The notes: generated by a model not told the origin, from the letters alone. Positions 1,189 to 60,233 are shown, numbered from the stretch's first letter. The stretch: DNA of 64,000 nucleotides from Patescibacteria group bacterium (GCA_041649475.1 JBAZNA010000001.1:814594-878593), one strand, 5' to 3'. Made by a program: numbers and translations.

Positions 1189-1222
1189 AAAAACAGGGAC
1201 CGCGTCTTGGACGAGGCCCCTA

Positions 1223-1942
1223 CTACTCAAGCGAAGCCAGAGTCACTTCTGTTTCTATGTCGTAGAATTTGAAGATTTGTTCGGTCCGTAGTTCCTCCAG
1301 GTGGTACAATCTGTCCAAAATGTGACGCTCACTAGGTGGGCTTTTCTTGATCAACCTGCGAAGTGATGACAGGTGGACGTAGACAACCCTGCGGGCCAAC
1401 ATGTCTATACTCTCACAGTCGTGAAAATTCCGACTGTGTTTGTGTTTTCTGTACCAATCTTGTACACCGGGATCTCCCCTGTCCTTAAGCTGAAAACCAA
1501 AGCACTGTACCCACGGAGGCATGCTCTGCAGAACAGCCAAACTGTTATCAAAAACCGCGGCTCCGATGTTCAGGCCAGGATAATTAAGCCCATTAATATG
1601 CACTCCGATCGCCTCGCCCTTCTTTTCCGGTCCGGCACACCTAAAAAAATAACTCTCATCAGGCAGGCCGAGCTGATTAAAGATGTCATTGGAGATAAGC
1701 AAGTGCAAATTTTTCTCAAAGATGTCTCGCCTATGCTCCTTGATATTAGCAACGATGAAGTGGTAGTTATACTTGGGATTGTGCCACAGGATTAACACCT
1801 GGCGGATCAGCTGCACCATTTCGTAGTTCGGCTCGGTGTCTCTGTTGGGAAAATCAGGAAAAAGTACACCACCGACATCAATGTAGATAACATAGACGAC
1901 TTCTTTGAACTTCATTAGTTTTGAAGGAACCAAGCTTCGCAT
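1223..1942 (-). CDS. hypothetical protein, compositionally atypical (GC-elevated) gene
   Basis: 239-aa ORF with visibly higher GC than neighbours. Strong SD GGGAGGGGG lies 3 nt before the ATG. A GC-rich hairpin plus T-run follows the stop. No family recognised. An HAD-like DVGGVL motif is not convincing. Confidence 0.5.
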   Translation of the reverse strand: MRSLVPSKLMKFKEVVYVIYIDVGGVLFPDFPNRDTEPNYEMVQLIRQVLILWHNPKYNYHFIVANIKEHRRDIFEKNLHLLISNDIFNQLGLPDESYFFRCAGPEKKGEAIGVHINGLNYPGLNIGAAVFDNSLAVLQSMPPWVQCFGFQLKDRGDPGVQDWYRKHKHSRNFHDCESIDMLARRVVYVHLSSLRRLIKKSPPSERHILDRLYHLEELRTEQIFKFYDIETEVTLASLE

Positions 1943-1972
1943 GTGCCCCCTCCCGGCATGTTTAAGGTAACT

Positions 1973-3085
1973 TTATTTTACAAAGAGAATACTGTCAAGA
2001 AAATCATCTACCGCTTTAATGAATATTTTTGGTTTTGCCAGATGAACATCATGGATGGAGTTTACTTTTACCACTTTAATATTTTTTACAATTGAACGGA
2101 TTTTCTCTTCGTCACGATCATCCAAGGCGCCGAGCAGTCCCCAAGTTTTATGCCTGGACCAATAGGCATGTATCAATAAAACCGGACATTTAATTTTTTT
2201 CAATGTTTCTTCCGGATCAAAGCCCTCGGTCAATCTGCCGTCAATTGTTGCTTTTGAAAAATCAACATCATACTCACTGATAAATTTTAAACCGGCCCTT
2301 TGATCAAACCGAGCATTAAGCAAATCATATGGCCGGGACGGACGAATTTTTTTATTGAGTTCCAAGCTTATCGCCCTATAACTTGCTATAAAAGAAGGCA
2401 TCATTAAAAGTTTTTCCTTGCCTTCTATCGGAATTCCCTGTTTAGCAAAAAAACCTTTTATGTCTCTAGTTGGCTTTCCCAGCGTTTCTACGGCGGTGTC
2501 AAAAAGGCGATACATGAATTTTTCTTCTTTAATTCTTGGATACATTGAAGAAAAAAGAGGCGGGTCTTCGCTGATTGCCATGGAAACATTTTCAGGAGCA
2601 TTGGCTGCCAGCCATAGAGAAAGCACGGCCCCCGAAGAAAGCCCCGATACAATCGCGGATTTTTTAACAACGTTTTTCAAAAATTCTTTGAGATCCTCTC
2701 CGATTATATTATACGAATATTCTCCCGGGGTGCGCGTTGATTTTCCATGCCCCCGAACATCAACAATAAAAACGTGATAATTTTTTGAAAAATGAGGCAG
2801 CACCAGTTCATACCCCTGCCAGAATTCCATCTGACCCGGAATAAATAACAAGGAAGGACCGTTATCCGGGCCCTCAACATAATTTAAAGTCACTTTTCCG
2901 GTATTGAATTTTTTTTCAGTAAATCCTTTGGGAATGGTCTCAACGGAAAGTCGAAACGGATTAAAAGTTTTTACAAGTAAAAAAACCACTACTCCCAAAA
3001 ATATCCAAAATCCGGGCACATGATAAATTATCACGGCTAAAATCGCCAAGATCCCTAAAGCGCTATAAATAATTGCTTTGCTCAT
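1973..3085 (-). CDS. alpha/beta-fold hydrolase with N-terminal transmembrane anchor
   Basis: GxSxG nucleophile elbow (GLSSG) and HGKS oxyanion region. TM helix after the start. The longer track ORF to 3127 would overlap tRNA-Ser, so the start is set at MSKAII (3085). Confidence 0.7.
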   Translation of the reverse strand: MSKAIIYSALGILAILAVIIYHVPGFWIFLGVVVFLLVKTFNPFRLSVETIPKGFTEKKFNTGKVTLNYVEGPDNGPSLLFIPGQMEFWQGYELVLPHFSKNYHVFIVDVRGHGKSTRTPGEYSYNIIGEDLKEFLKNVVKKSAIVSGLSSGAVLSLWLAANAPENVSMAISEDPPLFSSMYPRIKEEKFMYRLFDTAVETLGKPTRDIKGFFAKQGIPIEGKEKLLMMPSFIASYRAISLELNKKIRPSRPYDLLNARFDQRAGLKFISEYDVDFSKATIDGRLTEGFDPEETLKKIKCPVLLIHAYWSRHKTWGLLGALDDRDEEKIRSIVKNIKVVKVNSIHDVHLAKPKIFIKAVDDFLDSILFVK

Positions 3086-3102
3086 TTTGTGTGTAATAAG
3101 TG

Positions 3103-3193
3103 CGGAGAGGGTGGGATTTGAACCCACGGTACGGGTTTAAAACCGTACAACACATTAGCAGTGTGCCGCTTTCGACCACTCAGCCACCTCTCC
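3103..3193 (-). tRNA. tRNA-Ser (anticodon GCU)
   Basis: Reverse complement folds as a class II tRNA: acceptor GGAGAGG/CCTCTCC, anticodon stem GCACA/TGTGT, loop CTGCTAA, long variable arm, T-loop GGGTTCAAATCCC. No encoded CCA. Confidence 0.85.
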
Positions 3194-3231
3194 ATGAGAT
3201 AGGAACATTATACTTCTAAAATATGCCGAAG

Positions 3232-3885
3232 TCAACCGCTTTTGGCTAACACAAAACCCCGGACCTTATTGGCTCCGTTTTGTTTTAAAACCTTCGCGCA
3301 CTGCGCCATGGTGGCGCCGGTGGTATAAACATCATCAACCAATAAAACATTTTGCGGAGGCGCATCTGCTGATTTCCAGGCAAAAGCGTCTTTTACATTA
3401 TTTTTTCTCTGTTCGCCGGAAAGTTTGGCCTGCTGGACGGTGTTGCGAACCCGAACCAAACCCTTATTTTCAATCGGCAAATCAAAAACTTCAGCCAGGA
3501 GTTCAGCCAAAATCTGCGACTGGTTAAAACCTCTTTCACGCTGGCGGCGCGGGTGAAGAGGCACCGGCACAATTGTAAAACCTGAAACCAAGTCGCATTT
3601 CAAAATAAAACTTTTCCAAATTTCAGCCATCTCACGCGCGTATCCGTATTTAAAACCGCGGATTAATTTGGCAATAAAATCCTGATCATTATAATAAAAC
3701 AAATAAAACAGCCCGTCTAAATCCGTGCCCGCTAAATCAACTGAATCAAAATTTACTTTCGCTGTCTCAATTTTTCCCAAACAGTTTTCACACAGCCACT
3801 CCCCCTCCCGGCCGCACTTGGCGCAAAAAATTGGAAAAAATAAATCTTTTACAAATTTTACAAAAACAAAAAAGCCCCCCTTCAT
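3232..3885 (-). CDS. comFC: ComF family protein (ComFC-like phosphoribosyltransferase-domain competence protein)
   Basis: N-terminal Cys4 zinc ribbon (CAKCGREGEWLCENC) and C-terminal PRTase motif LLVDDVYTTGAT. Confidence 0.7.
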   Translation of the reverse strand: MKGGFFVFVKFVKDLFFPIFCAKCGREGEWLCENCLGKIETAKVNFDSVDLAGTDLDGLFYLFYYNDQDFIAKLIRGFKYGYAREMAEIWKSFILKCDLVSGFTIVPVPLHPRRQRERGFNQSQILAELLAEVFDLPIENKGLVRVRNTVQQAKLSGEQRKNNVKDAFAWKSADAPPQNVLLVDDVYTTGATMAQCAKVLKQNGANKVRGFVLAKSG

Positions 3886-3908: not shown

Positions 3909-4505
3909 TTATTTCCAAACAAAATCACTAACCAGCCAACTGGTGCCATTTTTCACCATAGACACCGTCACATTCTGATGCAAAGTAGTTGAAACGCCGT
4001 TTTGTTCTTTAATAACCGTTGCCTGCATTTGCACTGTGGCGGACGCGCCATCCCAATCCGACAAATTTGAAGTAATCACCTTTGCGGTCGCGCCGACAAA
4101 ATTGGCGGCCGGGCCGGTGGTAATTTTGGCTTTTAATTTTGACCACAAAGCCGGCGTTACCAAGTCCTGCACGTCTTTAATGTTTTGAAAATTACTGTCA
4201 GTTGAATAAGTGCCATAGCGTTCCGCAAAAATCTTTGCTAGTTGCTCTACACCATTTTGTTCAACCTCCACCGAGGTTAATTTTTTTACTGGCATGCCCG
4301 GCGTCACCGTGGTTGCTCCCTGTCCCAGCTGGGCCGAATTAAAATTATCTTTTTCAACAACACTTCCCGTAGTGGTGGTCGGGTTCTGCGCAATTTGCTC
4401 TTGCGCCGCTTTTTGCTTGGCATTAATTATTAAAAAAACACTGATACCCAAAACTAGCAAAACGACCAAGCTGACAACTACGAAAATTCTGGCGCGTAAA
4501 GACAT
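3909..4505 (-). CDS. bitopic membrane protein, possible VirB8-like T4SS component
   Basis: Single N-terminal TM (IFVVVSLVVLLVLGISVFLII) followed by a ~130-aa extracytoplasmic domain ending in beta-rich WLVSDFVWK. Sits immediately downstream of the VirB4 gene with a 3-nt gap. Confidence 0.4.
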   Translation of the reverse strand: MSLRARIFVVVSLVVLLVLGISVFLIINAKQKAAQEQIAQNPTTTTGSVVEKDNFNSAQLGQGATTVTPGMPVKKLTSVEVEQNGVEQLAKIFAERYGTYSTDSNFQNIKDVQDLVTPALWSKLKAKITTGPAANFVGATAKVITSNLSDWDGASATVQMQATVIKEQNGVSTTLHQNVTVSMVKNGTSWLVSDFVWK

Positions 4506-6388: not shown

Positions 6389-7069
6389 CTATTCTACTTG
6401 CAATTGATTAACCGGCCCCAAGTGTTCGCTAAACGCAATATCCGGATTATAGGTTGAATAAAAAAGCTCAATTAGCGACTGGGTGTCTAACCGCACCACT
6501 TCCAAATTCATACTGGCCAAACCGGATTCAATTTGCCGGACTCTCATATCCAAATCATGTTTTCTCTGTTCAAACCGGCTTTCTTTTAGTTTCACGGTCT
6601 TGGCCGGGTTGATAACTTCCGAACTCCGTGACCAAAAACCGCGTTTTTTGTTTGACATGGGATCATAAGGCACAACCACGTAAAATTGCTTGCTCATAAT
6701 TTTCCCTAAACTGACCAACTCGGAAACAAACGACCGGTAATCCGCGATTTGTGCCCGTAGCAGTTCATTGGTCTGCGCGCGCTCCTGCTCCAACAATTTG
6801 GCCAGATACGGTTTGATGTATAACTGTCTGGATTGAATTACAATTTGCAAAGGAAAATCAATTGAATTTAAAAAAGATATATATGAAGAAACAATCGCAT
6901 TTTGCTCGTCTTCATTTTTTAAAGCGAAATTAATACTGGAGACCATCATGACCGCCCGTAAAGTGCCGTCTTTCATCACAATGCTGTCGGATTTAATTTC
7001 CGCGAACGGCAAATGATGCTGGGTTGAAGGGAGCGACTTTTTCTTATTAAGCGCTTGTTTATTTTGCAT
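6389..7069 (-). CDS. hypothetical protein, possibly the detached N-terminal domain of VirB4
   Basis: 226-aa ORF ending 8 nt upstream of the VirB4 ATPase ORF, in a different frame. The combined length of 849 aa matches full-length VirB4. No motif recognised. Confidence 0.45.
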   Translation of the reverse strand: MQNKQALNKKKSLPSTQHHLPFAEIKSDSIVMKDGTLRAVMMVSSINFALKNEDEQNAIVSSYISFLNSIDFPLQIVIQSRQLYIKPYLAKLLEQERAQTNELLRAQIADYRSFVSELVSLGKIMSKQFYVVVPYDPMSNKKRGFWSRSSEVINPAKTVKLKESRFEQRKHDLDMRVRQIESGLASMNLEVVRLDTQSLIELFYSTYNPDIAFSEHLGPVNQLQVE

Positions 7070-7070
7070 A

Positions 7071-7499
7071 CTATTCTTCGGGGTTATAATATCCGCCGGT
7101 GTTTACGATAAGCGATAAATCCCTGATGCGGTTATATGACATTCTGGGCAATTCTTTGACTGCTTCAATCACTTCAACTTTAGACGCGTCCCGAAGTTCA
7201 ACCAGTTCGGCCTGGCTAAAAATTTTCTGCCAAATGCGGCGGCTGGGACGCCTGACGGTTTGAATGATGTTTAAAAGAAAATAATGAAAGGCCTGTCCGT
7301 TTATTTTTACAAAAGCGATAACCAGCGCCGAACCGCCGATAATGGCCGCCAAAAATATAAACAGGGTCAGGTCAGTCAGCTTAAAACAAATAAATAAAAT
7401 CAATCCGGCCGAGAGCAAAATCAAAAATTGTCTGGTCGTCACCGGCCCGAATATTTTGTCCTCAACGTCTATAAATTGCGGCACCACGAATTGTTCCAT
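7071..7499 (-). CDS. small 2-TM membrane protein, VirB3/PrgI-like
   Basis: 142 aa with two adjacent hydrophobic helices (FLILLSAGLILFICF..., FIFLAAIIGGSALVIAFV). Position directly upstream of VirB4 matches Gram-positive-type T4SS gene order. Confidence 0.45.
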   Translation of the reverse strand: MEQFVVPQFIDVEDKIFGPVTTRQFLILLSAGLILFICFKLTDLTLFIFLAAIIGGSALVIAFVKINGQAFHYFLLNIIQTVRRPSRRIWQKIFSQAELVELRDASKVEVIEAVKELPRMSYNRIRDLSLIVNTGGYYNPEE

Positions 7500-7510: not shown

Positions 7511-8500
7511 TTATAGCTCTTTTTCCATTTCTATTAAAGCGTCAATTTCACCCAATTGAATCCTGTTTTTATCGGTTAAGGTGGCGGCCAGGGTGCGCCG
7601 GTTAGCCAACGATTCACAAACCGCATTCAGATAATCCAGATAAAGCGGCGACTTATGATAGGCCTCAACCCCGTCCATATACAATAAAAATGATTCATCC
7701 TGCAGATTTAACAATTTTTGTTTTAATCGTTTGGCTGATTCAGCCGGTTTGTCGGATAATTTTCTAAAATCAGAAATGGTCAGGTATTTTATCTCTTCCA
7801 CCGGTCCCATCTCAATCGGAGACGCGGTGATGTCGCGCACAAACGGCTTAATCGCCGGCTGGCTGTTGGATAACGAGAAAGACGGTTCAAACTTTTTTAT
7901 AATTTCTTCTTTTTTGGGCGCATTAAATTTGGGCGCGCTAACCGGATTAACTGCCGGTTTGCGTTCAAAAGGATTAAACGGCGCATCTTTAGTCGGCATT
8001 TCCCGTAGTTCAACTTCCTGGCACGCCTTTAACAATTTTTCGGCCTGTGCCGGCAAAAGTCCGAGACCGCCGTCTTTGGTCTGCCGCACTGCCGTCTCCC
8101 TGGTTTCTTCATCACTGCGCAAATCTTTTAACCGCAACTGAATCACGCTGCGCATTCTGTTTTTAAACTCCTGCGGGATCTTAAAATCAAGTTTGGCCAC
8201 CACCTTGTCCACTTCGCTTTCCCTGGTTTGACTGGTTGTCGGCGCGGAATTATCTTTTAAACCCAACTTTTCTTCCAACAGCGAGCTGGCATCATCGCGC
8301 GTCCAATTTTTTTTCGGTGGCTGGGGCTGGGGTTTTGGTTGTTGCCTAATTGGCGCCGGCGGTTGAACCGGCTTCGGTGTTGGTTTGGGGGCTGGCTGTG
8401 GCGGCGCGTTCTGTTTTCTCAAATCAGAAAGTTTCATCATAACAAAACTGCCGTCTGCTTTTTTTACCCGCACCATTGGTTGTTGATTTTGATCTGGCAT
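7511..8500 (-). CDS. proline-rich hypothetical protein
   Basis: Low-complexity PQPAPKPTPKPVQPPAPIRQQPKPQPQPP tract. Start set at internal Met to avoid an 89-nt overlap with the upstream ORF. Confidence 0.45.
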   Translation of the reverse strand: MPDQNQQPMVRVKKADGSFVMMKLSDLRKQNAPPQPAPKPTPKPVQPPAPIRQQPKPQPQPPKKNWTRDDASSLLEEKLGLKDNSAPTTSQTRESEVDKVVAKLDFKIPQEFKNRMRSVIQLRLKDLRSDEETRETAVRQTKDGGLGLLPAQAEKLLKACQEVELREMPTKDAPFNPFERKPAVNPVSAPKFNAPKKEEIIKKFEPSFSLSNSQPAIKPFVRDITASPIEMGPVEEIKYLTISDFRKLSDKPAESAKRLKQKLLNLQDESFLLYMDGVEAYHKSPLYLDYLNAVCESLANRRTLAATLTDKNRIQLGEIDALIEMEKEL

Positions 8501-8525
8501 ATTTTTTATCCGCTCTCGCGGCGCT

Positions 8526-9419
8526 TTATATAGCCCATTTAAATTTTCCGTCTTTTTCGTCAAAATAATACAGCTCGGCAATTTTTGGATCTTTATATTT
8601 TTCCGATAATTCATTTAACCGGTTTAACACGCCTTCAATATTTGTAAATTCGCCCTGGGGGTTCTTTTTAAATTCAGAGGAGATTTGGGATTTGATTTCA
8701 CTCAAACTTTTTTTATTTTCAACTTTAGGTTGCGGTGGCGCTTCAGTCGCTTCAACCATATCTTGATGCAAATAATTATCTACTGCATTCACAATATTAT
8801 CCTCGTCAACTGTAGAAAAAAATATGGCTAATTCCATAAATCTTTCCATCATAACATTTGGGTCGGCCAAAAAATATTTGGCAATCACCGGATCGTTTTG
8901 AGGATAAATTATTTGCTTTAATTTATTTTCAAAATCCGCTTGCATGAGTGTGTCGGCACTGCGATTGACATTATTCATTTCTTTAATCAGATCAGAGATG
9001 ATAACTTTTTTTCCTTGCCAATCTCCAACCTTTGCCTGTGATTCTAAAAAAACCGGCTTCATTTTCAAACACAGACTTTGCATGTCCGATTTTTCCAGCG
9101 TCTTCATTTCAAAATACTGCATCAACTGTTCAAGGACATCAAAGTCAAGTGCCAAAGCCATGGGAATTTGTCTGGCAACCGCCACATTAACCAAAAAATC
9201 ACGATCTTGCGACCCGAACATTTTCCATGTCAGTTCAGTATAAATTCTAAAGTATGTCCATCTAAATTTTTCATCATCCAAAGATGAACTATTTCTAAAA
9301 AAAGCATCCAAAGATTGCCACGTCTCCTGCATCACGGATATGTTAACATGAGAGTCACGGATTTGCCGTTCAATATTCTCAAATTCTTGTGGTGTAATCT
9401 CGGTTACAGTTAACCTCAT
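8526..9419 (-). CDS. hypothetical protein (T4SS-like cluster member)
   Basis: 297-aa ORF, no TM, no recognisable motif. Tightly packed in the same-strand cluster. Confidence 0.45.
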   Translation of the reverse strand: MRLTVTEITPQEFENIERQIRDSHVNISVMQETWQSLDAFFRNSSSLDDEKFRWTYFRIYTELTWKMFGSQDRDFLVNVAVARQIPMALALDFDVLEQLMQYFEMKTLEKSDMQSLCLKMKPVFLESQAKVGDWQGKKVIISDLIKEMNNVNRSADTLMQADFENKLKQIIYPQNDPVIAKYFLADPNVMMERFMELAIFFSTVDEDNIVNAVDNYLHQDMVEATEAPPQPKVENKKSLSEIKSQISSEFKKNPQGEFTNIEGVLNRLNELSEKYKDPKIAELYYFDEKDGKFKWAI

Positions 9420-9430: not shown

Positions 9431-12400
9431 TTACTTTGGCTTGCTATTATTTTTTTCCAAATCCTTTATCCATTCTTTAACCATTTCTTTTTGTTCCTTT
9501 TTGATGGTTTTTTCTACTCTTTCCAAGGCGCTCTTTATCAAGTTAGCCACAGCGCCCCTGTCTTTGCTTGATTGATCCACACTCGTTTGCAATTGCTTAA
9601 GTTTTTTCACATCAGAATACTGCAGGATGTCACCCAAATCTGTTTTGACATATTCATCAACCTGATCCAACCGTGTAGAAGTGAGTGGCGCTAACAAATC
9701 AGCCACTATCTTTATAGATTCATCGGATTCAACAATAGCTTTTCTGTCCTCATTTTTATCTACAGCTCCTTCCAAGCCAGCACTAATACTGGTAATTTTT
9801 GCGGATGACCTTGCGGCTGTTCTTCTTCTTTGAATATGTTCTTTTCCTCCAGCACTACCGGCATCTGTGAGCCCCGTGGTAATACTTCCATCTGCCTGTA
9901 ATGTATCCTGGAGCAAACCGGCGACAGAAAACACACCCTGCCCTGCGGCCTTATCAAGGGACAAACGCAGCTGTTCCAACAAGGCCTGCGATCGTTCTCC
10001 GTGTATAGCGCCAAACTGCTTCACAGCTGCTTCCAACCCGTCTGGGCTTGCCGCTACCTTTTCACCAATGAGAGATGAAAATATGGCCGCTTGTACCTTC
10101 CTTACAGAACCAGCATCACTCGGATCTACGGAAATATTCTTAAGTAATTCCGGATCTACTAATTTTGAAATATTATCCATGTTTCCCAAACCAATCGCAC
10201 CGTGCTGTTCCCAATTGCCAATCTGCATTTCTGCCAAGCTCTTTTGAATCTGCGAATGTTTAAGCTTAGCCGCCACGACTGCCCTCTGATCTCCGCGTGA
10301 CTCGGCTGCCGCCAACTCTTTAAGCGCTTCGTCTTGTTTGTTGTATAATCCTTCCGTCCTAATAATTGACCTAGGGAAGTCAGTACCCACTGATTGCATA
10401 TCAATTCTTTGTTTTGCTTGTTTGCTCAAAACATTTTCCAAATTATTTGCTTCAGAAAAACGATTATTGCTTCTCAAGACCGCATCCCTGGCGCGGGCCA
10501 CATTACGTTCCTTTATTTCATTCATATCCGTATTCAACTGTTCAATCTGTGCTCTTCTGTCCGTAATATCCGCTTGCACAACTTTCCCTTGATCACTTGT
10601 TAACACTTTTTTGATCTCCTCTAATTCCTTCAGTTCTCTTTCTGCGTTCAACTTATCTTCCATTTGCTTAGTCTCCGCTTTGGCTGCAGCCGCACGCAAC
10701 ATCCTCTCTCCACCTTCTCCGGCCATTAATTTTTGCTTTATCCGCGCCCTATCTTCCTCTTGTGTTGCCTTTAACATCTGCTCTATATTTTCAGCTTCAA
10801 TAGCAGATTTATCAGCATTATTTAATCGCTGATAATCAGAAGTTTGCCGAGCATCAAATTTCCCGGATGCCTCCAGTTCTTCCAAAACCTGCTTTTCTGA
10901 TTTTCCCGCACCTTTACCCGCGGCAACCGCGGCCGCTATAGCTCTATTATCTTCATCTTGTTCTTCATATTTTGTCTGTAATTTTCGCCTCTTAATATCC
11001 TGACCGGTTCTCTTCAGTTTTTCCAAGTCCGCTTCTTCTTGTAGCTTTCTTTGGCCGGTCGGGGTCTTGCTGGTGCTTATTCTATGCTCTTGTTGCTCTA
11101 TTGCATATTTTGCAGCTGTTTCTTCATCCTTTGCCAATTCATTCTTAAACCGCTGGGGTGCAAACATCAAACCAAGTCTGGCGCCATATCTTTTCCATCT
11201 ACTTTTTTCTGTAAACTCACCTTGTTCATTTTTTCCAAAGGCAGTATCTATCCTTCTCCCCGCCGCTACAATTCTCGGCTCAACATAACCCTTGTTCCAC
11301 GCTTGTGATACTCTGCTCTTTATACGAAGCCCTCTTGCTTGCCACGCCTCTCCACCCACAAGAGGAGCTTTCATCAAAGCAAACTTTCCGGCCTTTTTTC
11401 CGGCCTCCATACCCTTTCTACCCACATACCTCGCCGCGGTCAGACCACTGGCGATCTTAGCCGTCTTTTCAACCGCACTGCTAAGCATTGACCCGCCATA
11501 CACTCCCAATTCCTGGGCCATTTTGGCTCCGGCCATCAGCATACCAATGGCAATGGCGAAGTTGGCTAAAGCGACCCAGGTCATGCCTCCGCCCACTCCT
11601 GATTTTTGGCCAACGCCCGCGTCATCAACAGCCGCCCAGGTATCACCGGCCGGCAGAGGATTATTGGCAGAACTGGTAATATCAGATTGAATATCACCCG
11701 ACCCCAAAGTAACAAAAGCCAGCCAAATAAAAAAGGCAATGAGCGGACCAGAGACGACGTTGTTACCGAATTCTTTCCACCACCGATCGGCATAACCTTT
11801 TGTTTTTGGTAAAACATTTAAGACAAAAGCTAAAGGAGATAAAACAATCAACACCCAAAGCATAACCATCCTGGCTAACAGCATAATTGCAAAAACACCC
11901 ATGGTCACCATCATCATTGCCGAAAAAACTAATCCGCCCAAAGATGCCAAAAATACATTACCGGGCGTAATTTCATTCGGCTTGGCCTGACGAGCCAGAT
12001 TAAGAATATTATTAACATTAAACATGTTAATTAAATTCCCACCGGCAGTTGCGGCCACACCGTTGATAAAAGTGATCATTATCACCTGCGCGAAGTCAAT
12101 TATAATTCCGGCAATTTGCCGGCTGAAGTTCACCAGTACGGCCGCGAATATTAATTTGCTTAATAATTTTTTCCAGGAATAATCTTCAATCCCCAAAATT
12201 GTGGCAAAAGCAATAATAAGCAAAACTATGACAAAAAACATGTTGGTTATGTCGCGCACCATGATCCAGCCGATATTTACGGCCGGAGACCTGATATATC
12301 CGTTATAACCCCCAAGAGTGATGACAAACTTAAGTAAAAATATTGAAATTTGAATAAACCAACCGGCGATTGTTAACAGTATGGTACCAATCAGATTGGC

Positions 12401-12604
12401 AGCCGTTGTCCATATATCTGCAGCAGCGGTGGCAAGTCCGGTTGCGCCAAACCACATGATTAAAATCAAACTCGCACAGATAATAAAACCAACCAAACCG
12501 ATTCGCTTTCGCTTTGGTGTTAAAAACTGCCAAAATGTTTTTATTTTAACCGCAATAACGGCAAGCATGCTTAAATTATACCACATTTGGCTACTTCCGC
12601 GCAA
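9431..12604 (-). CDS. VirB6/TrbL-like polytopic membrane protein with long charged coiled-coil C-terminal extension
   Basis: N-terminal ~330 aa contain 6-7 predicted TM helices, as in VirB6/TrbL. The remaining ~700 aa are K/E/R/Q/A-rich heptad-like sequence. Confidence 0.6.
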   Translation of the reverse strand: MRGSSQMWYNLSMLAVIAVKIKTFWQFLTPKRKRIGLVGFIICASLILIMWFGATGLATAAADIWTTAANLIGTILLTIAGWFIQISIFLLKFVITLGGYNGYIRSPAVNIGWIMVRDITNMFFVIVLLIIAFATILGIEDYSWKKLLSKLIFAAVLVNFSRQIAGIIIDFAQVIMITFINGVAATAGGNLINMFNVNNILNLARQAKPNEITPGNVFLASLGGLVFSAMMMVTMGVFAIMLLARMVMLWVLIVLSPLAFVLNVLPKTKGYADRWWKEFGNNVVSGPLIAFFIWLAFVTLGSGDIQSDITSSANNPLPAGDTWAAVDDAGVGQKSGVGGGMTWVALANFAIAIGMLMAGAKMAQELGVYGGSMLSSAVEKTAKIASGLTAARYVGRKGMEAGKKAGKFALMKAPLVGGEAWQARGLRIKSRVSQAWNKGYVEPRIVAAGRRIDTAFGKNEQGEFTEKSRWKRYGARLGLMFAPQRFKNELAKDEETAAKYAIEQQEHRISTSKTPTGQRKLQEEADLEKLKRTGQDIKRRKLQTKYEEQDEDNRAIAAAVAAGKGAGKSEKQVLEELEASGKFDARQTSDYQRLNNADKSAIEAENIEQMLKATQEEDRARIKQKLMAGEGGERMLRAAAAKAETKQMEDKLNAERELKELEEIKKVLTSDQGKVVQADITDRRAQIEQLNTDMNEIKERNVARARDAVLRSNNRFSEANNLENVLSKQAKQRIDMQSVGTDFPRSIIRTEGLYNKQDEALKELAAAESRGDQRAVVAAKLKHSQIQKSLAEMQIGNWEQHGAIGLGNMDNISKLVDPELLKNISVDPSDAGSVRKVQAAIFSSLIGEKVAASPDGLEAAVKQFGAIHGERSQALLEQLRLSLDKAAGQGVFSVAGLLQDTLQADGSITTGLTDAGSAGGKEHIQRRRTAARSSAKITSISAGLEGAVDKNEDRKAIVESDESIKIVADLLAPLTSTRLDQVDEYVKTDLGDILQYSDVKKLKQLQTSVDQSSKDRGAVANLIKSALERVEKTIKKEQKEMVKEWIKDLEKNNSKPK

Positions 12605-13280
12605 TAATATATAGATAGTGTCCCCAGAAAGGAAAAATCCTGTTTAAAATGCCATCAAAAACACCAGCAATCGGCATATCCGCGTAAGGCGGTTTGGCAA
12701 AAAACTTGACTGAAGAGAAGCCATTTCGCCTTAACCAGTGTTTAAATTTAAATGGCGAATATTTTTTGTGCGTGCCATAAGGCCAGCGTTTTTTTATGCG
12801 CAGATACCATTCCTGCATAACACCGAATGAAAGCAGATTCGGCTGAACAATAATTAACAAACCGTCAGGTTTGAGCACCCGGCGCGCCTCGGATATTGCT
12901 TTTTCAATTTCATCAAAATATGTGAGCACGCCCCAGCTTAACACCACATCAAATGTCTGGTCGCTAAAAGGCAAAGCCCGCGCGTCCGCAACCTGGTAAG
13001 TATTCATATTAGTTGGTTCAATTGCCTTTGCCCGTTCAATTGCCCCGCTGGAAATGTCTATGCCACAACCGGTTGTCTGAAAATTTTGTTGTAAATATCT
13101 TAGCGCCGCTCCGTCGCCACAGCCCGCATCCAACACTTTTTTGCCCAAAAAATCAATGCCAAAATTCACCAGATCAGAAATTTTTTCTTCTGTTTTAAAC
13201 ACCCGCCGCGGGTAAAGAGAATACTGATTATTTTTTAACCAGATGGCATCCCACCGGTCAGAGATAGAATTTTTTGGCAT
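12591..13280 (-). CDS. class I SAM-dependent methyltransferase
   Basis: Motif I LDAGCGDGAA and motif post-I GIDIS, Rossmann MTase fold. Overlaps the downstream VirB6-like gene by 14 nt. Confidence 0.8.
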   Translation of the reverse strand: MPKNSISDRWDAIWLKNNQYSLYPRRVFKTEEKISDLVNFGIDFLGKKVLDAGCGDGAALRYLQQNFQTTGCGIDISSGAIERAKAIEPTNMNTYQVADARALPFSDQTFDVVLSWGVLTYFDEIEKAISEARRVLKPDGLLIIVQPNLLSFGVMQEWYLRIKKRWPYGTHKKYSPFKFKHWLRRNGFSSVKFFAKPPYADMPIAGVFDGILNRIFPFWGHYLYIIARK

Positions 13281-13285
13281 ATTTC

Positions 13286-13314
13286 TACTATATTTCTAAA
13301 CGGCGGGGTTGTCA
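13286..13314 (-). promoter_or_regulatory. sigma70-type promoter for methyltransferase / T4SS-like operon (TTGACA-17-TATAGT), near-leaderless
   Basis: Minus-strand reading is TTGACAaccccgccgtttagaaaTATAGTagaaatATG. The -10 ends 6 nt before the ATG. Confidence 0.5.
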
Positions 13315-13343
13315 ATGAGTTGGCTAAAGATTATAATTCATTC

Positions 13344-13372
13344 TTGACAGAACCTCGTCTTTTGGCTATATT
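13344..13372 (+). promoter_or_regulatory. sigma70-type promoter (TTGACA-17-TATATT) for GC-rich lipoprotein gene
   Basis: Consensus -35 at 13344-13349 and -10 at 13367-13372 with a 17-nt spacer. Leader hairpin CCCAAC-ctggtg-TTGGG at 13381-13397 and SD AAGGAGAGG follow. Confidence 0.6.
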
Positions 13373-13422
13373 ATCTGGTTCCCAACCTGGTGTTGGGTAC
13401 GAAAAAGGAAAAGGAGAGGCAC

Positions 13423-15375
13423 ATGACCAAGATCGGCTTCTGTTTCGTGGCGTTTCTCGCGTTCATCCTGTGCGCCTGTGGTGGTAACTCCGGAACCGGT
13501 GATGGCGGCACGGACAACCACGACAGCGCCGTCAGCGACGGCACCCTGCCCAACGACGCCAGGGATACGGCCCCTTCGGAGTGCACGAGCAACGCGCAGT
13601 GCGACGATGGCATTGACTGCACGGACGACACCTGTTCGTCCTCGGGCTGGTGCACCAACACGCTGGTGCCGGCGCGGTGTCCGACAGGTACGTGGTGTAA
13701 TCCCACCAAAGGTTGCGAGGCCGGAAAGGCCTGCGCCAAGGACGAGGATTGCGACAGCACCGATGCCTGCGTCGTGAACAACGGCTGTGATCCTGCCTCG
13801 CGCGTCTGCATGTGGTCAGTGCTTGACGGCGATGGCGATGGACAGCCCCCGCTTGTGTGCGGCGGAACCGACTGTGATGACAGCGACTCCGACGTCTACG
13901 CCGGAGCTCCCATGCGTTGCAACGGCAAAGATAACAACTGCGATGGGATCGTGGATACCGGAACCGCCACGGACGAATGGTGCAACGAGACCTACGGACC
14001 GGGTCACGCCTGCCAGTCAGGGCACTGCGTCTGTACGACCGGGACACAGTGCGGGTACACGTGTGCGGACTTGCTCACCGACAAGAACCACTGTGGCACA
14101 TGTTTCAACCCATGTCCGCTCAATGAAGTGTGTGTACAGGGTCAGTGTGAGTGCCCGAGCAGTGGCCAGACATTCTGTGCTGTTGATGGCTGTGTTGACC
14201 TCACGAGCGACAAATACAACTGTGGCGAGTGTGAACACGGCTGCTGGGCAGACCAGACATGCGTAGCAAGTCAGTGCGCGTGTTCAGGCAACCTGACGCA
14301 ATGCGGTTCGTGTGTGGACACACAAACCGACAACGACAACTGCGGTTCGTGCGGTCACGCCTGCAGCTCGCCTGCCAGCTGTGTGTCGGGTCAGTGCCAG
14401 TGTCCGACCAGTGGCCAGAGCTATTGCGATGGCGCCGGCTGTGTGGATCTTCAGACCGACCACGACAACTGCGGCACATGCGGGCACGCGTGCCGTGCAA
14501 GCGATACATGCTGGAGCGGCAGCTGCCCGGCTTACTGGAAAAACGTCGTGAGTAACACGGCGCTGAAGCTCAACGCAGTATGGGGAGCCGCACCCAATGA
14601 TGTCTGGACTGTTGGAAACTACACCACTGGCTCCCTGGGAGGCGCCATCCACTGGAACGGTAGCTCGTGGGCGCCTATGGGTGGCGCGACATCGAAACTC
14701 TACGGAATCTGGGGAACCACGCTTAATTTCTGGGTCGTTGGAGAAACCAGCGGGTACCTCGAGGTCTGGAATGACGTCTCCGGCACTTGGGAGGGTATAC
14801 CCAACGGGTGCACGACAGCTTCCCTCTATGGTATCTGGGGAACTGCGATTGATGATACCTGGTTCGTTGGAGCCGCCGGAACGACTGTCTATTTCAACGG
14901 CAGTACGTTCTCATGCGTCCCCAGCGGTTCAACGAATGTCCTCCATGGAGTAGGAGGCACCGCCAACAATGACGTCTGGACAGTAGGAGACGGCGGTACC
15001 ATCCTCCATTGGAATGGAAGCACGTGGTCCAGCGTGACCTCCAATACGACGAACGCCCTCTATGGAGTGTGGGGCAACACCACCAGTGATGTCTGGGTGG
15101 TGGGCGACTACGGTACCACTCTTCACTGGAATGGAAGTGTGTGGTCAGCCGTCGTCAGCTACACAGGATCAAAACTCAACGGCGTGTGGGGCAGTAGTGC
15201 CAACGATGTCTGGGCTGTGGGAGATGTCGGGGTCATCCTCCACTGGAACGGGAGTAATTGGTCCACTGTTGCCACAGGGACAACGGCACATTTCTCTGCC
15301 GTGTGGGGCAACAGCGCTACTGACATCTGGGTTGTGGGAGAAGCGGGAACCACTCTCCACTACTACACGTACTGA
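13423..15375 (+). CDS. secreted Cys-rich lipoprotein with putative metal-binding Cys/Asp motif, CGxCGHxC repeats and eight C-terminal ~40-aa propeller-like repeats; very GC-rich
   Basis: Start ATG at 13423 after SD AAGGAGAGG. Signal peptide plus Cys lipobox region (FLAFILCACGG). DGDGDGQPPLVCGGTDCDDSDSDVYAGAPMRCNGKDNNCDG matches the MopE-type putative metal-binding motif. The C-terminal repeats follow WGxxxxDVWxVGxxGTxLHWNGSxWS, eight copies. GC3 is far above the genome background. Confidence 0.75.
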   Translation: MTKIGFCFVAFLAFILCACGGNSGTGDGGTDNHDSAVSDGTLPNDARDTAPSECTSNAQCDDGIDCTDDTCSSSGWCTNTLVPARCPTGTWCNPTKGCEAGKACAKDEDCDSTDACVVNNGCDPASRVCMWSVLDGDGDGQPPLVCGGTDCDDSDSDVYAGAPMRCNGKDNNCDGIVDTGTATDEWCNETYGPGHACQSGHCVCTTGTQCGYTCADLLTDKNHCGTCFNPCPLNEVCVQGQCECPSSGQTFCAVDGCVDLTSDKYNCGECEHGCWADQTCVASQCACSGNLTQCGSCVDTQTDNDNCGSCGHACSSPASCVSGQCQCPTSGQSYCDGAGCVDLQTDHDNCGTCGHACRASDTCWSGSCPAYWKNVVSNTALKLNAVWGAAPNDVWTVGNYTTGSLGGAIHWNGSSWAPMGGATSKLYGIWGTTLNFWVVGETSGYLEVWNDVSGTWEGIPNGCTTASLYGIWGTAIDDTWFVGAAGTTVYFNGSTFSCVPSGSTNVLHGVGGTANNDVWTVGDGGTILHWNGSTWSSVTSNTTNALYGVWGNTTSDVWVVGDYGTTLHWNGSVWSAVVSYTGSKLNGVWGSSANDVWAVGDVGVILHWNGSNWSTVATGTTAHFSAVWGNSATDIWVVGEAGTTLHYYTY

Positions 15376-15427
15376 CACTAGCACTGCTTCGCTCCTTCCT
15401 ACCTTTTCGCTCCTTTTCACCCCTTCG

Positions 15428-15476
15428 GCCCGGCCCTATCTGACTTCAAGGTCAGTGGGGTACGGGCTTTTTTATT
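15428..15476 (+). terminator. rho-independent terminator
   Basis: Long near-perfect hairpin gcccggccctatctgac-ttcaag-gtcagtggggtacgggc followed by TTTTTT. Confidence 0.7.
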
Positions 15477-15508
15477 TGCTAAGCCGAGCTAAAAGTGTTA
15501 ATCTACCC

Positions 15509-15537
15509 TTGACAAGAGCTCATTTTTGTGCTATACT
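15509..15537 (+). promoter_or_regulatory. sigma70-type promoter (TTGACA-17-TATACT) for second GC-rich lipoprotein gene, with ~165-nt structured leader
   Basis: Consensus -35 at 15509-15514 and -10 at 15532-15537. The leader contains hairpin GCTAAGTT...AACTTAGC (15576-15605) and the CCCAACC...GGTTGGG hairpin (15672-15691) before SD GGAAAAGGAGA. Confidence 0.55.
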
Positions 15538-15710
15538 AATCTGTTAGTTTTTAAATAGGTTGTTCTTTACAAAGTGCTAAGTTGAGCCGAAAGGCAGAAC
15601 TTAGCCAAATGAGATGGTAAGCCCAAGTTGGGGTGATAGTTGGTTCTAAAATCTTTAGACACAGCTACAACCCCAACCTTGGGTGGTTGGGAACAGGAAA
15701 AGGAGAAACC

Positions 15711-16166
15711 ATGCGCTACAACATCAAGAAGATCCTCGCGATCATGGGCGGCTTCGCCCTTGTTCTCATCGCTGTTGCGGCCCTCACCGGCTGTGGTGGC
15801 GACGATCCCCAGTGCGGAACCGACGGTCAGCCCCCGTGCGACGTTCAGGCCGACGGCGGCACCGACGGCACGCCGACCCAGCAGGACGCTGGCGACGGCG
15901 GTGTCATCAAGACCGACGGCGGCGACGCGGGCGGAGATCCGTGCGCGGCGTTCAATCCTTACCTGAACGGATGGACCTGCAAAACCGCTCCGAATGACCC
16001 ACTGTCGTTCTCCTGCAATTTCCTGCCTACCGCCGATGGCAGTGCATGCCAGATTGGCTGCTATGGCCACTTCTCGTGCATTGCTCCTCCGGAGATGTTG
16101 ACGTCGCAGGAGTTTACCTGCGATATGATCGGCGCTCCCGGAAACATCCGCATCTGTGTCCACTAG
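15711..16166 (+). CDS. small secreted Cys/Gly/Asp-rich lipoprotein; very GC-rich
   Basis: ATG at 15711 after SD AAGGAGAAACC. Signal peptide with classic lipobox LTGC. Eleven Cys in a 151-aa mature part. GC3 very high. Confidence 0.7.
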   Translation: MRYNIKKILAIMGGFALVLIAVAALTGCGGDDPQCGTDGQPPCDVQADGGTDGTPTQQDAGDGGVIKTDGGDAGGDPCAAFNPYLNGWTCKTAPNDPLSFSCNFLPTADGSACQIGCYGHFSCIAPPEMLTSQEFTCDMIGAPGNIRICVH

Positions 16167-16246
16167 TTCCACCCCACCATCTCGCTCGCGACGATTCACA
16201 AATCGTCGCGCGCTTCCCTAAGTAGAAAATAGCTTTTCTGTTGAGG

Positions 16247-16294: not shown

Positions 16295-19200
16295 TTACTG
16301 TGGCGCGACAATGATACTACCGAAAAATGAAGTTGAAGCAGTAGTCAAATAATTGTCGCACTCATTGACATAAGGGGATGTCCACCCCTTATCATAACAC
16401 CCACCCAGCCCATTGTGATCACAACTCCCATTACACCACCCCCAATTATCCTTCACCTGCACGGACGGTTTGAAGACGCAACAGCCACCCGGGAAACGCG
16501 CGTCCGGACAAGTGTCTTGCCAGCCGGTGCCGTCTTTTAGACATTGGTAAACGTGGTCAAAACGGAAGTATGAGTTGTCACAAGATTTATCCAATATCTG
16601 ACCGAAATTGACAGACAAACTCTCCGACAGACACTGATCCAAATATTTACAATCAGCGGATTTAACACAAGTTTTGCCGGTGTCCACGTTAACTGTGGTG
16701 CGACTGTCTGTGGAAAGGGCAGAAATATATTCCGTAGCTTGGACTTTACAAGTGCCGTTTGTGCATGTACCGGCAACTACGCCGCGATGGTTGCGATAAT
16801 AGCCATTAAGGTTGGTCAAATCACCGTCACCCCAACTGACAATAACATTTCGCAAAGGCATTTGATTGGCGTCGGCAAAGGCGTAAAATTTAATGTTGGC
16901 CGGGAAGACGTATGACGGAGAAACTACATTACCGGTTGATTGATCGTTGACGGTGATACCCGGATTACCTTCACCGCATCTGCCGGCTAAACATGCTTGC
17001 GTGTTAAGAGAGCGGACTTCGGGCGGTCTCGGTGTTAATCCCGAACATGCTTGCACAGAACTTCCGCTTAAGGTAACGTTCGGACAAATGTTTTTATCTC
17101 CTTTTTCCGTATAATTATTGTTGACGTAATAGGTTGAATTGGGAACATAGGCCTTTGAGTTAAAACTATATTCCAAATCCGCATAAACGCTCGCAAAAAT
17201 CTTGGCCGCGGCCTTTTGGCCTTGATCTAAAACAAAGTTGCTGGCCGGACTCTTTTTAACTCCGCCTGAATCGGTGGTCATGGTACAACCACTGCCATTA
17301 TCATACTGACAACTGAAAGGAGCGCCGGAAACTTGTTTGGGGGCTGTTAAATTGTATTTACACGTACAATCATAAGTCGTGCCGTCGGATTTTACCGGAC
17401 AGGGATTGCACTCACTCTCCGCCTTTGGCATGGCGCCGACAGGACTAAGCACAACAGGACTAACCGGTTGGGTATTCTGACCAATACTGCCAAATGGACT
17501 ACGATTGGTTAAATAATCATAACCCACCCAATCAGCAATCTCCGGTCCGCCAAAATCTCTTATTGAATACTTTGATTTTTGCCATAAACGATCTGTCCAA
17601 GCCACAGCGCGTCCGCCACTGGGATTAATACCACTGTCAACGGACACATCCAAAATCTTTTCGCACCACTGCCTTACTCTAAATTTCACGTCATAGTTAA
17701 TATGTCCTGTATTAGCAGAATCATCACAATAAGCTAAATAATAACCCAAAAACTTACCGGTATTTTCATCAAACTTTAACCGAACAGCATGCCAATTTCC
17801 AAAATTTTTACTAGATAATGTACAGATATCATCCATACTGATGCTTCTATTCCAAATGCCTTCCACGCCCAAGCTTCTGTTGTTAGAGGTTTTTAAAGTG
17901 TCGGCTTGCAGAATATTACCGGATAATGTGGCACAAGTTAAAGTATCCCCGCTATAACCATAACAAACCGAACCATCATCCTTAAGATAAGTGCTATTTA
18001 CCGGGTCGGCCTCATTCTTGGAAGCGCTACTATACATTAATATAAATTCATTTGCTTTACCTAAATATTTGCCAACTACAGCATGCCCAAAAGGACTAAC
18101 ATTACCGCCTCTGGTATTAAGAGCAAACACTGCTTGAGGGGTTCCAACAGGCGCGGTATTATCATTAGGCCAAACTTCAAAAACAGTACCTACTCTAGGA
18201 TCCTCCGTATCATCACCGGTCACCGTGAATTGAATTTTTTCTATGTCAGCCAAACGTAAATTCTTCTCTCCATTATTTGAGTCAGCAGGCACAAAAGCTC
18301 TTATATATGCATTGTCGGATTGTTCCATCCACCATCCGGTCTCGAGAATATTCGTATCACCCAGACCATTTGCGGTGTGCATTTGTAAATTTTCAGTACT
18401 CCCCTCTATGGCGGGATTTGGCTTGGCCGTCCACTCAAAATAATAAGGAGTAGCACCTACATATCCCATCACTTTATTTCCACTCAAACAATAATACCTG
18501 CCTCCATTTGAAGGATTAACATATCCGGCTTCCCTGTCCTGGCCATTGACATCCGGAGCGCCGATTAGAGTGTCAACCGGATACCAAGTCAAACAAGTGT
18601 TGGTCTTGCCGTCCGCGTTTAATTGTCTGGAAATATCCGGCTCCAAACAATAACCGTGCCAGCCCACAAAACTGGTTTGCTTGGTGGCTTTGTTGCAAGT
18701 GCCGCCGTCCGGACAATCAGCATCGGTTTCACAAACCTTGCCGTCACGGGTGCCATTGGAACAAATTCCGCCCACCACTCCCTTAATCATCGTATTGTTC
18801 ACGCCGGCAATGCCAACCAAATTATTCGGATTGCTTAAATTCCAATACTTGGAAATTGAATCCCCATAACTGACTTTTGTATAATCACATTCGCAGGCAC
18901 CCGCCGCACTCGCATCAGTGGTCACACCTGTCCCACTTTCATTGCACAAATTCGCGCCGGCATAATTTTGCGCTGATTTCAAACTTTGCGTGTTCGGATA
19001 CGGCGCGCTTTCTTCCGGATAATTGCGGCAAGTTTGTTTGGGCGCGTTAGCGTCAAAGTCGGCGGCCGTGCCGTTTGGGTTTAAAACGCAGACCGAATTA
19101 TTGCTGGCGGTTTTTTCACACAAACCAATGCCGCCGCGGCCGCACTTATCCGTACCTGCTTTGCAAAGATAAGATTCAGTTTTGGTTGAATCCTGGCAAT

Positions 19201-23998: not shown

Positions 23999-24006
23999 AT
24001 TTTTGA

Positions 24007-35489: not shown

Positions 35490-35504
35490 AAAATTAGTTT
35501 TTAT

Positions 35505-51102: not shown

Positions 51103-51257
51103 ACTAAGTAAAACGAAAAATTATATAATATGTAACCGGCTAGCCGTAATCTACCACAAATTAGGGAAAAATTAAACTCTTTTTTAACCCTTTTTGCTCT
51201 TGCCTACACTTAAATTATGTGCTAAAATATTGGTATTAAAATTAGTAATTCCTCCAT

Positions 51258-51872: not shown

Positions 51873-51887
51873 TCATTCACGACCAAT

Positions 51888-52193: not shown

Positions 52194-52198
52194 CCAAT

Positions 52199-54673: not shown

Positions 54674-54702
54674 AAAAATCAAAGGGTATACTATCTTATA
54701 GC

Positions 54703-56199: not shown

Positions 56200-56202
56200 A
56201 AA

Positions 56203-56230
56203 ATCCCCCGATCAGTCAGGGGATTTTTTA
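56203..56230. terminator. bidirectional rho-independent terminator
   Basis: AAAAATCCCC-gatcagtca-GGGGATTTTTT between the converging rel (+) and SBBP protein (-) genes. Confidence 0.7.
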
Positions 56231-56231
56231 A

Positions 56232-59360: not shown

Positions 59361-59379
59361 ATGATTGATGAATTAAAAT

Positions 59380-60228: not shown

Positions 60229-60233
60229 ATGTT

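Follow-up and report, generated by a model that had tools for sequence, protein, structure and literature searches.

Among type IV secretion systems (T4SSs), only that of Patescibacteria has been shown to be indispensable to its owner's survival, as reported for Southlakia (PMC10633639, PMC12857230). In Southlakia epibionticum, the essential gene SEML1_0013 (3267 bp) encodes a TrbL/VirB6-like protein of 1088 amino acids (aa), which has been parsed into membrane helices (156–445), a "CesA-like" hairpin (516–630), and an "ARM repeat" region (736–1085), and SEML1_0011 (998 aa) has an ARM-like C-terminus as well (PMC10633639 Table S2). The papers on Patescibacteria T4SSs list VirB6 homologs without discussing the tail in the text (PMC12102498, PMC10633639). 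Proteins that combine at least five hydrophobic helices with one or more sizeable hydrophilic domains, central or C-proximal and of no assigned function, are recognized as the "extended VirB6" class of Alvarez-Martinez and Christie (as described in PMC12857230; see also PMC7648143). The stretch of DNA analyzed here (64 kb, referred to below as the window) comes from a Patescibacteria group bacterium and carries on its minus strand, at 9431..12604, an open reading frame (ORF) encoding a VirB6-family polytopic membrane subunit of a chromosomal, origin-proximal Patescibacteria T4SS of a Magasanikbacteria-type organism. The gene itself is an ordinary, annotated T4SS component, and the extended VirB6 class to which it belongs is already recognized; the novelty lies in the account given of its tail, in which a conserved basic tract leads into an orphan folded domain and which is probably cytoplasmic.

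The closest described counterpart is SEML1_0013. Both proteins are approximately 1050–1090 aa long and present a TrbL/VirB6 domain, a hairpin at approximately 515–630, and a helical C-terminus (listed as ARM repeat for SEML1_0013, weakly ARM-like here) in the same order, a likeness of the tails that is based on tabulated layout and coordinates, not on tail sequences. Because the coordinates of SEML1_0013 are nearly equal to those found here, the tail layout appears to be common to different Patescibacteria classes (Saccharimonadia for Southlakia, Magasanikbacteria-type for the present organism) and to be already in print without comment. Residues of the present protein are numbered from the TTG codon of the 1057-aa ORF unless stated otherwise, and its parts are as follows.

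9431..12604, minus strand: whole ORF, with a TTG start and the stop codon at 9431-9433, 1057 aa
12419..12568, minus strand: basic N-terminal segment (KIK..KRKR) with the first hydrophobic helix, which ends in ATAAA|D, aa 13–62
11510..12418, minus strand: VirB6 hydrophobic helical core, aa 63–365
11705..12235, minus strand: Pfam TrbL match, aa 124–300
11063..11509, minus strand: basic juxtamembrane segment, Gly/Ala/Lys-rich, aa 366–514, mostly below 55 in predicted local distance difference test (pLDDT)
10724..11062, minus strand: helical hairpin with helices of 49 and 43 residues, aa 515–627, pLDDT 75–95
9443..10711, minus strand: C-terminal domain, aa 632–1054, pLDDT mostly 93–98
9725..9952, minus strand: best-conserved patch of the C-terminal domain, aa 885–960, with Gly-rich loops, an RR pair, an invariant Asp, and a beta hairpin

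The assignment to VirB6 is secure when the fold, the Pfam match, and the genomic context are taken together. The Pfam TrbL/VirB6 family (PF04610) matches aa 124–300 over profile positions 1–180 of 215 (28.3 bits, E 1.8e-6), a score that exceeds the gathering score of 25.9 by a small margin, and most relatives have no precomputed Pfam match. The whole protein has no match in NCBIfam, and a PDB sequence search with the whole-family profile returned no VirB6 at E<=1, the sequence similarity to canonical VirB6 being marginal. In the full-length AlphaFold2 model, built with 94 relatives, the helical membrane domain reaches pLDDT 76–91, and the top PDB matches of the full model in Foldseek are chains of TrwI/VirB6 from the R388 stalk (8rt9_F, 7o3v_F, and 7o3v_J), with a probability of 1.00 and modest target TM-scores and E-values (0.45–0.53 and 0.016–0.07, respectively). 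The context points to the same family because PrgI/VirB3, TraC-like/TrsD, and VirB4 are encoded downstream on the same strand. A VirB6-like helical bundle at the N-terminus, as proposed in a preliminary description of this stretch, is thus upheld by the Pfam score above cut-off and the R388 fold matches; the hydrophobic domain is present as described, but it extends to about aa 363 rather than over approximately 330 aa.

This domain contains 7–9 hydrophobic segments within aa 32–363, the last hydrophobic helix spanning aa 340–362 behind an acidic variable loop (aa 302–342). Invariant elements of the core include YNGY, RD..N, NFSR, R245, and several Trp residues (W101, W238, W263, and W282 in 1045-aa numbering). 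Judging from the sequence, aa 13–62 form a signal-anchor or possibly a cleavable signal peptide; the AxA motif of the first helix is kept in the family consensus. With at least five hydrophobic helices followed by a 692-aa hydrophilic C-terminal region, the protein belongs to the extended VirB6 class.

The tail comprises aa 366–1057 and lacks any hydrophobic segment over its 692 aa, of which 45% are K/E/R/Q/A and 32% are K/R/D/E. The approximate length of 700 aa, the K/E/R/Q/A-rich composition, and the absence of Cys given in the preliminary description stand (the sole Cys of the ORF is C43), and the peptide quoted there, EQQEHRISTSKTPTGQRK, is located at aa 503–552. On the other hand, "highly charged" is a mild overstatement, since the charged fraction of 0.32 lies at the upper edge of that of the cytoplasmic proteins of the window (mean 0.27, range 0.22–0.32, n = 24). 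The heptad-like character and the long coiled-coil stalk suggested in the same description were not borne out. In a purpose-written register-scanning score with 35-aa windows, a crude measure that is neither COILS nor MARCOIL, 6.0% of the windows of the tail exceeded the 95th percentile of shuffled tails and 1.7% exceeded the 99th, which is the level expected by chance. Fourier analysis of the hydrophobicity of the tail gave no spectral peak at periods of 3.5, 7, or 2.33, and no internal repeats were found when they were searched for in the tail; a heptad pattern is limited to aa 674–709 and 997–1044. The longest helix predicted by AlphaFold2 in the tail comprises 49 residues, and the helices fold back on one another. 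A heptad coiled-coil tail is not supported, given this chance-level periodicity and the back-folding helices.

Instead of a stalk, the AlphaFold2 models present a basic flexible segment, helical hairpins, and a compact folded alpha domain. The model of the tail by itself has a mean pLDDT of 92 and a predicted TM-score (pTM) of 0.75, and in the full-length model residues 640–1040 have pLDDT values of 93–98 and residues 370–510 values below 55. The juxtamembrane segment carries the consensus AQxLGxxGGxxMGKAxDFGKK...AARWA...GAKxAGK...PxxGGxxWxRRG and, near aa 510, an STS..G..K motif. Because low pLDDT is combined here with sequence conservation, aa 366–514 probably become ordered only on a binding partner. 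In the C-terminal domain, a second pair of long helices is followed by shorter helices as well as by a beta hairpin and a pair of short strands, and the conserved motifs are ARD (705–707), a His of RHAA type, EKAAGQG (885–890), RR (927–928), G..G..D (943–949), and VDEY. The invariant polar and Gly residues (GQG 888–890, RR 927–928, and G943/G946/D949) gather round the beta/loop element, which suggests that the patch at aa 885–960 is a candidate binding site.

The extension is a feature of the whole family. All of the 120 nearest relatives are long (median 1068 aa), with a tail of median 746 aa that is approximately 31% charged and essentially Cys-free. [quoted passage not shown] Its presentation of the extension as unusual does not hold, because the extended VirB6 class is known and the layout is tabulated for SEML1_0013 (PMC12857230, PMC7648143, PMC10633639). 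Nearly all of the best 80 of the 512 genomes are labeled Magasanikbacteria or Patescibacteria or bear seeming placeholder labels. Many of the closest relatives (loci L011, L013, L015, and others) come from metagenome-assembled genomes (MAGs) labeled "uncultured Gammaproteobacteria bacterium", and one is labeled "Candidatus Udaeobacter sp."; these labels appear to be placeholders or binning errors, and the loci are clearly Patescibacteria-like.

Conservation along the protein is very uneven. The membrane core and the first ~70 residues past the last hydrophobic helix are highly conserved, and the remainder aligns poorly. A profile of the C-terminal domain (A3), built from the last 430 aa of 13 sequences, contains the motifs ARD, SEAxN, KQAK, LSEMQ, RHAA, EKAAGQG..AGL, RR, G..GSVD, and VDEY. 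Against 1.84 billion cluster representatives, it matched only 60 proteins at E<=0.001, in every case at the C-terminal end of proteins of ~900–1400 aa or in shorter entries. Of these shorter entries, P0125 and P0121 are contig-end fragments, P0159 (locus L006) is a frameshifted gene, and P0132, which starts ~100 nt from a contig end, is probably a fragment. The domain is recognizable in 61 of the 120 relatives, and the longest relatives (1200–1600 aa) have tails without recognizable relation to it. On this distribution of sequences, the C-terminal domain is taken as a fast-diverging orphan module confined to these Patescibacteria VirB6 proteins.

Searches for a known fold agree with this orphan status. 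The tail has no Pfam match at E<=10; the family and C-domain profiles matched among PDB sequences only compositionally biased helical proteins (TolA, SMC, ezrin, and amphiphysin; E>=0.004); and the C-terminal domain has no significant match in the PDB and BFVD fold libraries. The best fold matches of the tail are designed helical repeats, importin-alpha/ARM, and 14-3-3, with a probability of 0.3–0.6 and a TM-score <=0.28. A fused domain with a known enzymatic fold, which the preliminary description had considered, was not found; the C-terminal domain is a separate folded module that matches no known fold.

Such family-wide regularity also settles whether the long ORF could be an artefact, produced either by an assembly or frameshift error that joined two genes or by the wrong extension of a frame. 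This explanation could draw on the listed TTG start, which overlaps the stop of the upstream gene for an S-adenosylmethionine (SAM) methyltransferase (12591..13280), and on the relative L006, in which a frameshift splits virB6. The next in-frame ATG codons lie at 12586 (M7, with GGAAG upstream at a 7-nt spacing) and 12568 (M13), either of which is probably the true start. The gene call of JGI begins at M7 (1051 aa) and that of NCBI at M13 (MFA5062309.1, 1045 aa, on a 963-kb contig), where the identical protein is named [quoted passage not shown]; apart from the start, both call the identical protein on this contig. More than 100 independent homologs from different assemblies share the one-piece architecture at 900–1600 aa. 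In the metagenomic relative L006, virB6 (608..3582) has a frameshift within the juxtamembrane motif, which yields ORFs of 399 and 591 aa that mimic a split gene. P0159/L006 was considered as a natural split between the transmembrane (TM) domain and the tail, and this was rejected because the DNA places the frameshift inside the conserved AARWA...GGKAW motif, where there is no natural gene boundary; the break reflects either an error in sequencing or a pseudogene. With this family-wide architecture, a gene-fusion artefact is already refuted and retains next to no probability.

The side of the membrane on which the tail resides was assessed from charge and composition, with charges averaged over 94 relatives. 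The N-terminus has a net charge of +4.5, the loop before the last hydrophobic helix −3.6 (positive in 0% of the relatives), and the first ~127 alignment positions after this helix +13.8 (positive in 100%). In a TopPred-style enumeration, the seven best topologies all have both termini inside, with a bias of 9.2 for the best topology with the C-terminus inside versus 7.3 for the best with the C-terminus outside. Furthermore, the charged fraction of the tail (0.32) matches that of the cytoplasmic proteins of the window and not that of its exported or anchored proteins (0.18, range 0.12–0.25, n = 9). The exported proteins of this genome are often Cys-rich and the tail is Cys-free; however, Cys content was discarded as a localization marker, since the cytoplasmic proteins here are also Cys-poor. 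In A. tumefaciens, Brucella, and H. pylori, the C-terminus of the VirB6 homolog is cytoplasmic (cited in PMC7648143). Because charge bias and composition favor the inside, the tail is probably cytoplasmic.

Alternatively, the tail could be extracytoplasmic and cross the cell wall or S-layer as part of a conduit or as a host-contact tether, or it could be cleaved and delivered to the host. The same has been proposed for the extended VirB6 proteins of Rickettsiales and for F TraG; the C-termini of Anaplasma VirB6-3/-4 are trypsin-sensitive on intact cells, and the C-domains of F/SXT TraG act outside the cytoplasm (PMC7648143). Most of the hydrophobic helices of R388 VirB6 lie outside the membrane (PMC9259494). 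In the present cluster, equivalents of VirB2/5/8/9/10, which would be able to build an external channel, are not recognizable, and the tail is 35–40% identical among genomes in which VirB4 is 80–87% identical, host-facing parts often diverging fast. Against this placement stand the uniformly positive segment after the last helix and the acidic loop before it in all 94 relatives, the seven top-ranked topologies with the C-terminus inside, and the composition of the tail, which contains no Cys and lies outside the exported range of charged fractions. In addition, a giant secreted protein encoded upstream is a more obvious extracellular component. An extracytoplasmic tail is therefore regarded as doubtful, though it is the foremost alternative to a cytoplasmic one.

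The virB6 gene lies in a conserved cluster, read in the order KsgA, a TM protein of ~200 aa, a giant secreted Cys-rich protein of ~2500–2800 aa, and the long VirB6, followed by soluble proteins of ~300 aa and ~350 aa, PrgI, TraC-like/TrsD, VirB4, a ~200-aa N-terminally anchored protein, and a ComF-like protein. The same order was found in six other loci of Magasanikbacteria and other Patescibacteria (L001, L002, L003, L007, L009, and, with an insertion, L008). The members in the window are as follows.

8526..9419, minus strand: acidic, soluble protein of 297 aa without a Pfam match or a hydrophobic segment; its family adjoins virB6 in 7 loci
7511..8614, minus strand: soluble Pro-rich protein, 367 aa as listed, with no Pfam match; its family is directly upstream of prgI in 8 loci
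7071..7499, minus strand: PrgI/VirB3-like membrane protein (PF12666, E 2.8e-10)
6389..7069, minus strand: TraC-like/TrsD, 226 aa, the separately encoded N-terminal part of VirB4 (PF26593 in syntenic loci; PMC12102498)
4509..6380, minus strand: VirB4-family ATPase, 80–87% identical among the genomes compared
3909..4505, minus strand: conserved Cys-free protein of 198 aa with one membrane anchor at its N-terminus, encoded after virB4 in all loci
3232..3885, minus strand: ComF-like phosphoribosyltransferase with an N-terminal zinc-ribbon motif, which closes the cluster in every locus extending that far
16295..24642, minus strand: upstream syntenic pair of a 211-aa TM protein and a 2567-aa secreted protein, conserved next to virB6 in other genomes

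In comparison with two other genomes, the identity is 80–87% for VirB4, 72–82% for TrsD, and 66–76% for PrgI, versus 35–40% for VirB6, 32–35% for the two soluble proteins, and 42–46% for the giant protein. VirB4 is split into two genes, both of which (72–87%) are highly conserved relative to the rest of the cluster; a separate TrsD homolog has been described for Patescibacteria (PMC12102498). The two soluble families between virB6 and prgI have neither a signal peptide nor a hydrophobic segment and diverge at the same pace as the tail of VirB6, and the start of the 367-aa ORF is probably M39 at 8500. Some loci carry a third, larger soluble protein (651–745 aa) after virB6, and in L008 of Magasanikbacteria genes for AAA_14/DUF4143 ATPases and an AbiEii toxin are inserted between the soluble proteins and prgI (16639..21246). 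By size and topology, one might guess that the 198-aa protein is VirB8-like. The ComF-like gene represents a competence-type protein constantly linked to the T4SS.

No domain of a type IV coupling protein (T4CP) or relaxase was found in the 64-kb window. Among ORFs of >=120 aa near the cluster there was no pilin match in Pfam, smaller ORFs lying outside the profile scan; no small ORF with two TM segments was found next to the cluster, and pilin genes could lie elsewhere in the genome. A replication origin is probably located near 51000..61100, ~40–50 kb from the T4SS cluster, as indicated by a strand switch at ~51.2 kb, a cumulative GC skew minimum at 52–60 kb, gyrA (52199..54673), and parB/parA (59380..61007); an origin-proximal location has been reported for the T4SS of Patescibacteria (PMC12102498).

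Upstream of virB6, the 2567-aa secreted protein (16295..23998, minus strand) has a signal peptide, 104 Cys residues, and a faint CBM_4_9 match, and the 211-aa TM protein (24007..24642, minus strand) has TSP3/EAD1 matches. In the other genomes examined, this pair is located between ksgA and virB6 with 42–51% identity, and it looks like a part of the T4SS locus, perhaps as an extracellular component or a substrate. Relative to L001 and L002, the region 12591..16199 is an insertion between the giant gene and virB6, and it contains the SAM methyltransferase gene mentioned above (minus strand, 12591..13280), a plus-strand gene at 13390..15375, and a 210-aa ORF (15567..16199, minus strand). The gene at 13390..15375 has 57% GC versus a window average of ~44%, many overlapping ORFs there being GC-driven artefacts, and looks horizontally acquired; its product is lipoprotein-like, with 57 Cys residues, Stig1/MopE motifs, and C-terminal WG..DVW.VG repeats. 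Elsewhere in the window, two tandem paralogs of Peptidase_C92 (YaeF/YiiX-type amidase) are encoded at 34216..37178 (minus strand) beside a PilB-like T2SSE ATPase, and a 1042-aa secreted protein with DUF7948/beta-propeller is encoded at 56232..59360.

As in Southlakia and other CPR bacteria, the genes of the present T4SS are clustered on the chromosome near the origin, VirB4, TrsD/TraC-like, and PrgI/VirB3 being encoded together with VirB6, and neither a T4CP nor a relaxase is nearby (PMC10633639, PMC12102498). It differs from the Southlakia system in that no genes for VirB2-like pilins or VirB1-like hydrolases were seen beside the cluster and in that its neighbors include the giant secreted Cys-rich protein and the ComF-like gene. 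With R388 TrwI and A. tumefaciens VirB6 the present VirB6 protein shares a hydrophobic multi-helix fold, the PF04610 match, and the partners VirB3 and VirB4, and the cytoplasmic C-terminus mapped in A. tumefaciens VirB6 (cited in PMC7648143) would have its counterpart here. In contrast, canonical VirB6 proteins are ~300–340 aa long, have no large hydrophilic domain, and work with VirB5, VirB2, and VirB8, none of which is recognizable in the present cluster.

In Anaplasma VirB6-3/-4, F TraG, and SXT TraG, the VirB6/TrbL hydrophobic domain is likewise extended at the C-terminus by a large hydrophilic region. The Rickettsiales VirB6 and TraG extensions, however, are either rich in repeats or of unrelated sequence, with a surface-exposed or periplasmic location reported for them, whereas the present extension is non-repetitive, confidently folded, predicted to be cytoplasmic, and part of a domain family restricted to Patescibacteria. 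The VirB6-like proteins that serve Gram-positive conjugation (PrgH of pCF10, MPF_FATA class) belong to T4SSs of the monoderm type with PrgI/VirB3 and VirB4, as does the protein described here, although its tail has no detected sequence relation to anything outside the Patescibacteria family. TcpH of pCW3, another of the Gram-positive VirB6-like proteins, likewise has a C-terminal hydrophilic domain, which is regarded as cytoplasmic. Most VirB6 homologs of CPR bacteria match the VirB6 profile of MPF_T and not PrgH (PMC12102498).

Based on the predicted structure and the composition of the cluster, a possible role for the tail is proposed in which VirB6 carries a three-part, most likely cytoplasmic extension that forms an interaction platform round VirB4/TrsD; a probability of roughly 0.5 is assigned to this reading as a whole. 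By analogy with R388, a VirB6 pentamer would sit above the VirB4 hexamer, and the flexible basic tract could let five C-terminal domains reach round the ATPase on the cytoplasmic face. These compact, mostly alpha-helical (ARM-like) domains may form an interaction platform for VirB4/TrsD, which could dock the conserved pair of soluble proteins whose genes separate virB6 from prgI and/or substrates. In this way, the platform may partly make up for the missing coupling protein. An interaction role is suggested by the fold likeness of the tail, which is weak and only to helical-repeat adaptors (importin-alpha/ARM, 14-3-3, and designed repeats), by the CesA-like hairpin and ARM repeat tabulated for the essential SEML1_0013, and by the constant presence of two signal-peptide-free soluble proteins between virB6 and prgI.

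Several observations weigh against this proposal. The topology is based on charge bias, the hydrophobic segments can be counted as either 8 or 9, and the difference between the topologies with the C-terminus inside and outside is modest. In R388, only two hydrophobic helices of VirB6 are in the membrane (PMC9259494), and since most of them lie outside it, segment-based topology is unreliable for the VirB6 family. The C-domains of the extended VirB6 proteins Anaplasma VirB6-3/-4 and F TraG are located outside the cytoplasm (PMC7648143). Divergence is much faster in the tail and its two soluble neighbors (32–40% identity) than in VirB4 (80–87%), which would also fit host-exposed or secreted parts. 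There is no clean co-variation of tail type with the family of the downstream proteins, and the 297-aa and 367-aa families occur with recognizable and unrecognizable tails alike. Finally, the ARM-like resemblance is weak at the Foldseek probability and TM-score given above.

Two further functions were considered for parts of the tail. The C-terminal domain might be an undescribed, Patescibacteria-specific fold that serves as a cytoplasmic substrate receptor and ATPase-docking module, VirB6 having absorbed the recruiting role of the T4CP in a secretion system on which the epibiotic lifestyle depends; this more far-reaching version is unlikely. The basic juxtamembrane tract, on the other hand, could be the key functional element and bind a nucleic acid (DNA or RNA) as substrate where the channel opens to the cytoplasm, with the helical domain as an accessory and with DNA uptake or export involving the ComF-like protein. 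Such a role could be accommodated by the tract, which has a net charge of +14, is rich in Gly, Ala, Lys, and Arg, and is conserved and predicted to be disordered, and by the ComF-like phosphoribosyltransferase encoded at the end of the cluster in all loci examined. To judge from the title of a paper, TraD, the VirB6 homolog of pKM101, is reportedly a DNA-binding protein. However, Pfam and PDB profile searches found no nucleic-acid-binding fold or motif in the tail, the 64-kb window contains no relaxase or coupling protein, and basic juxtamembrane tracts have other ligands as well, namely anionic lipids or acidic partner proteins. Moreover, the T4SS of Southlakia is essential, whereas comEC-dependent transformation is not (PMC10633639, PMC12857230). 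Nucleic acid binding by the tract is accordingly given a small chance, and the interaction platform round VirB4/TrsD is preferred.

In the extended VirB6 protein described here, two thirds of the subunit form a conserved and so far undiscussed module in which a basic tract and helical hairpins precede an orphan helical domain. With it, the extended VirB6 class, the extensions of which have no known function, gains a structurally defined example. The cargo of the T4SS and the recruitment of substrates without a coupling protein are the setting in which a folded VirB6 tail matters, and a folded, probably cytoplasmic tail gives concrete targets for the study of an essential and mechanistically opaque system of Patescibacteria.

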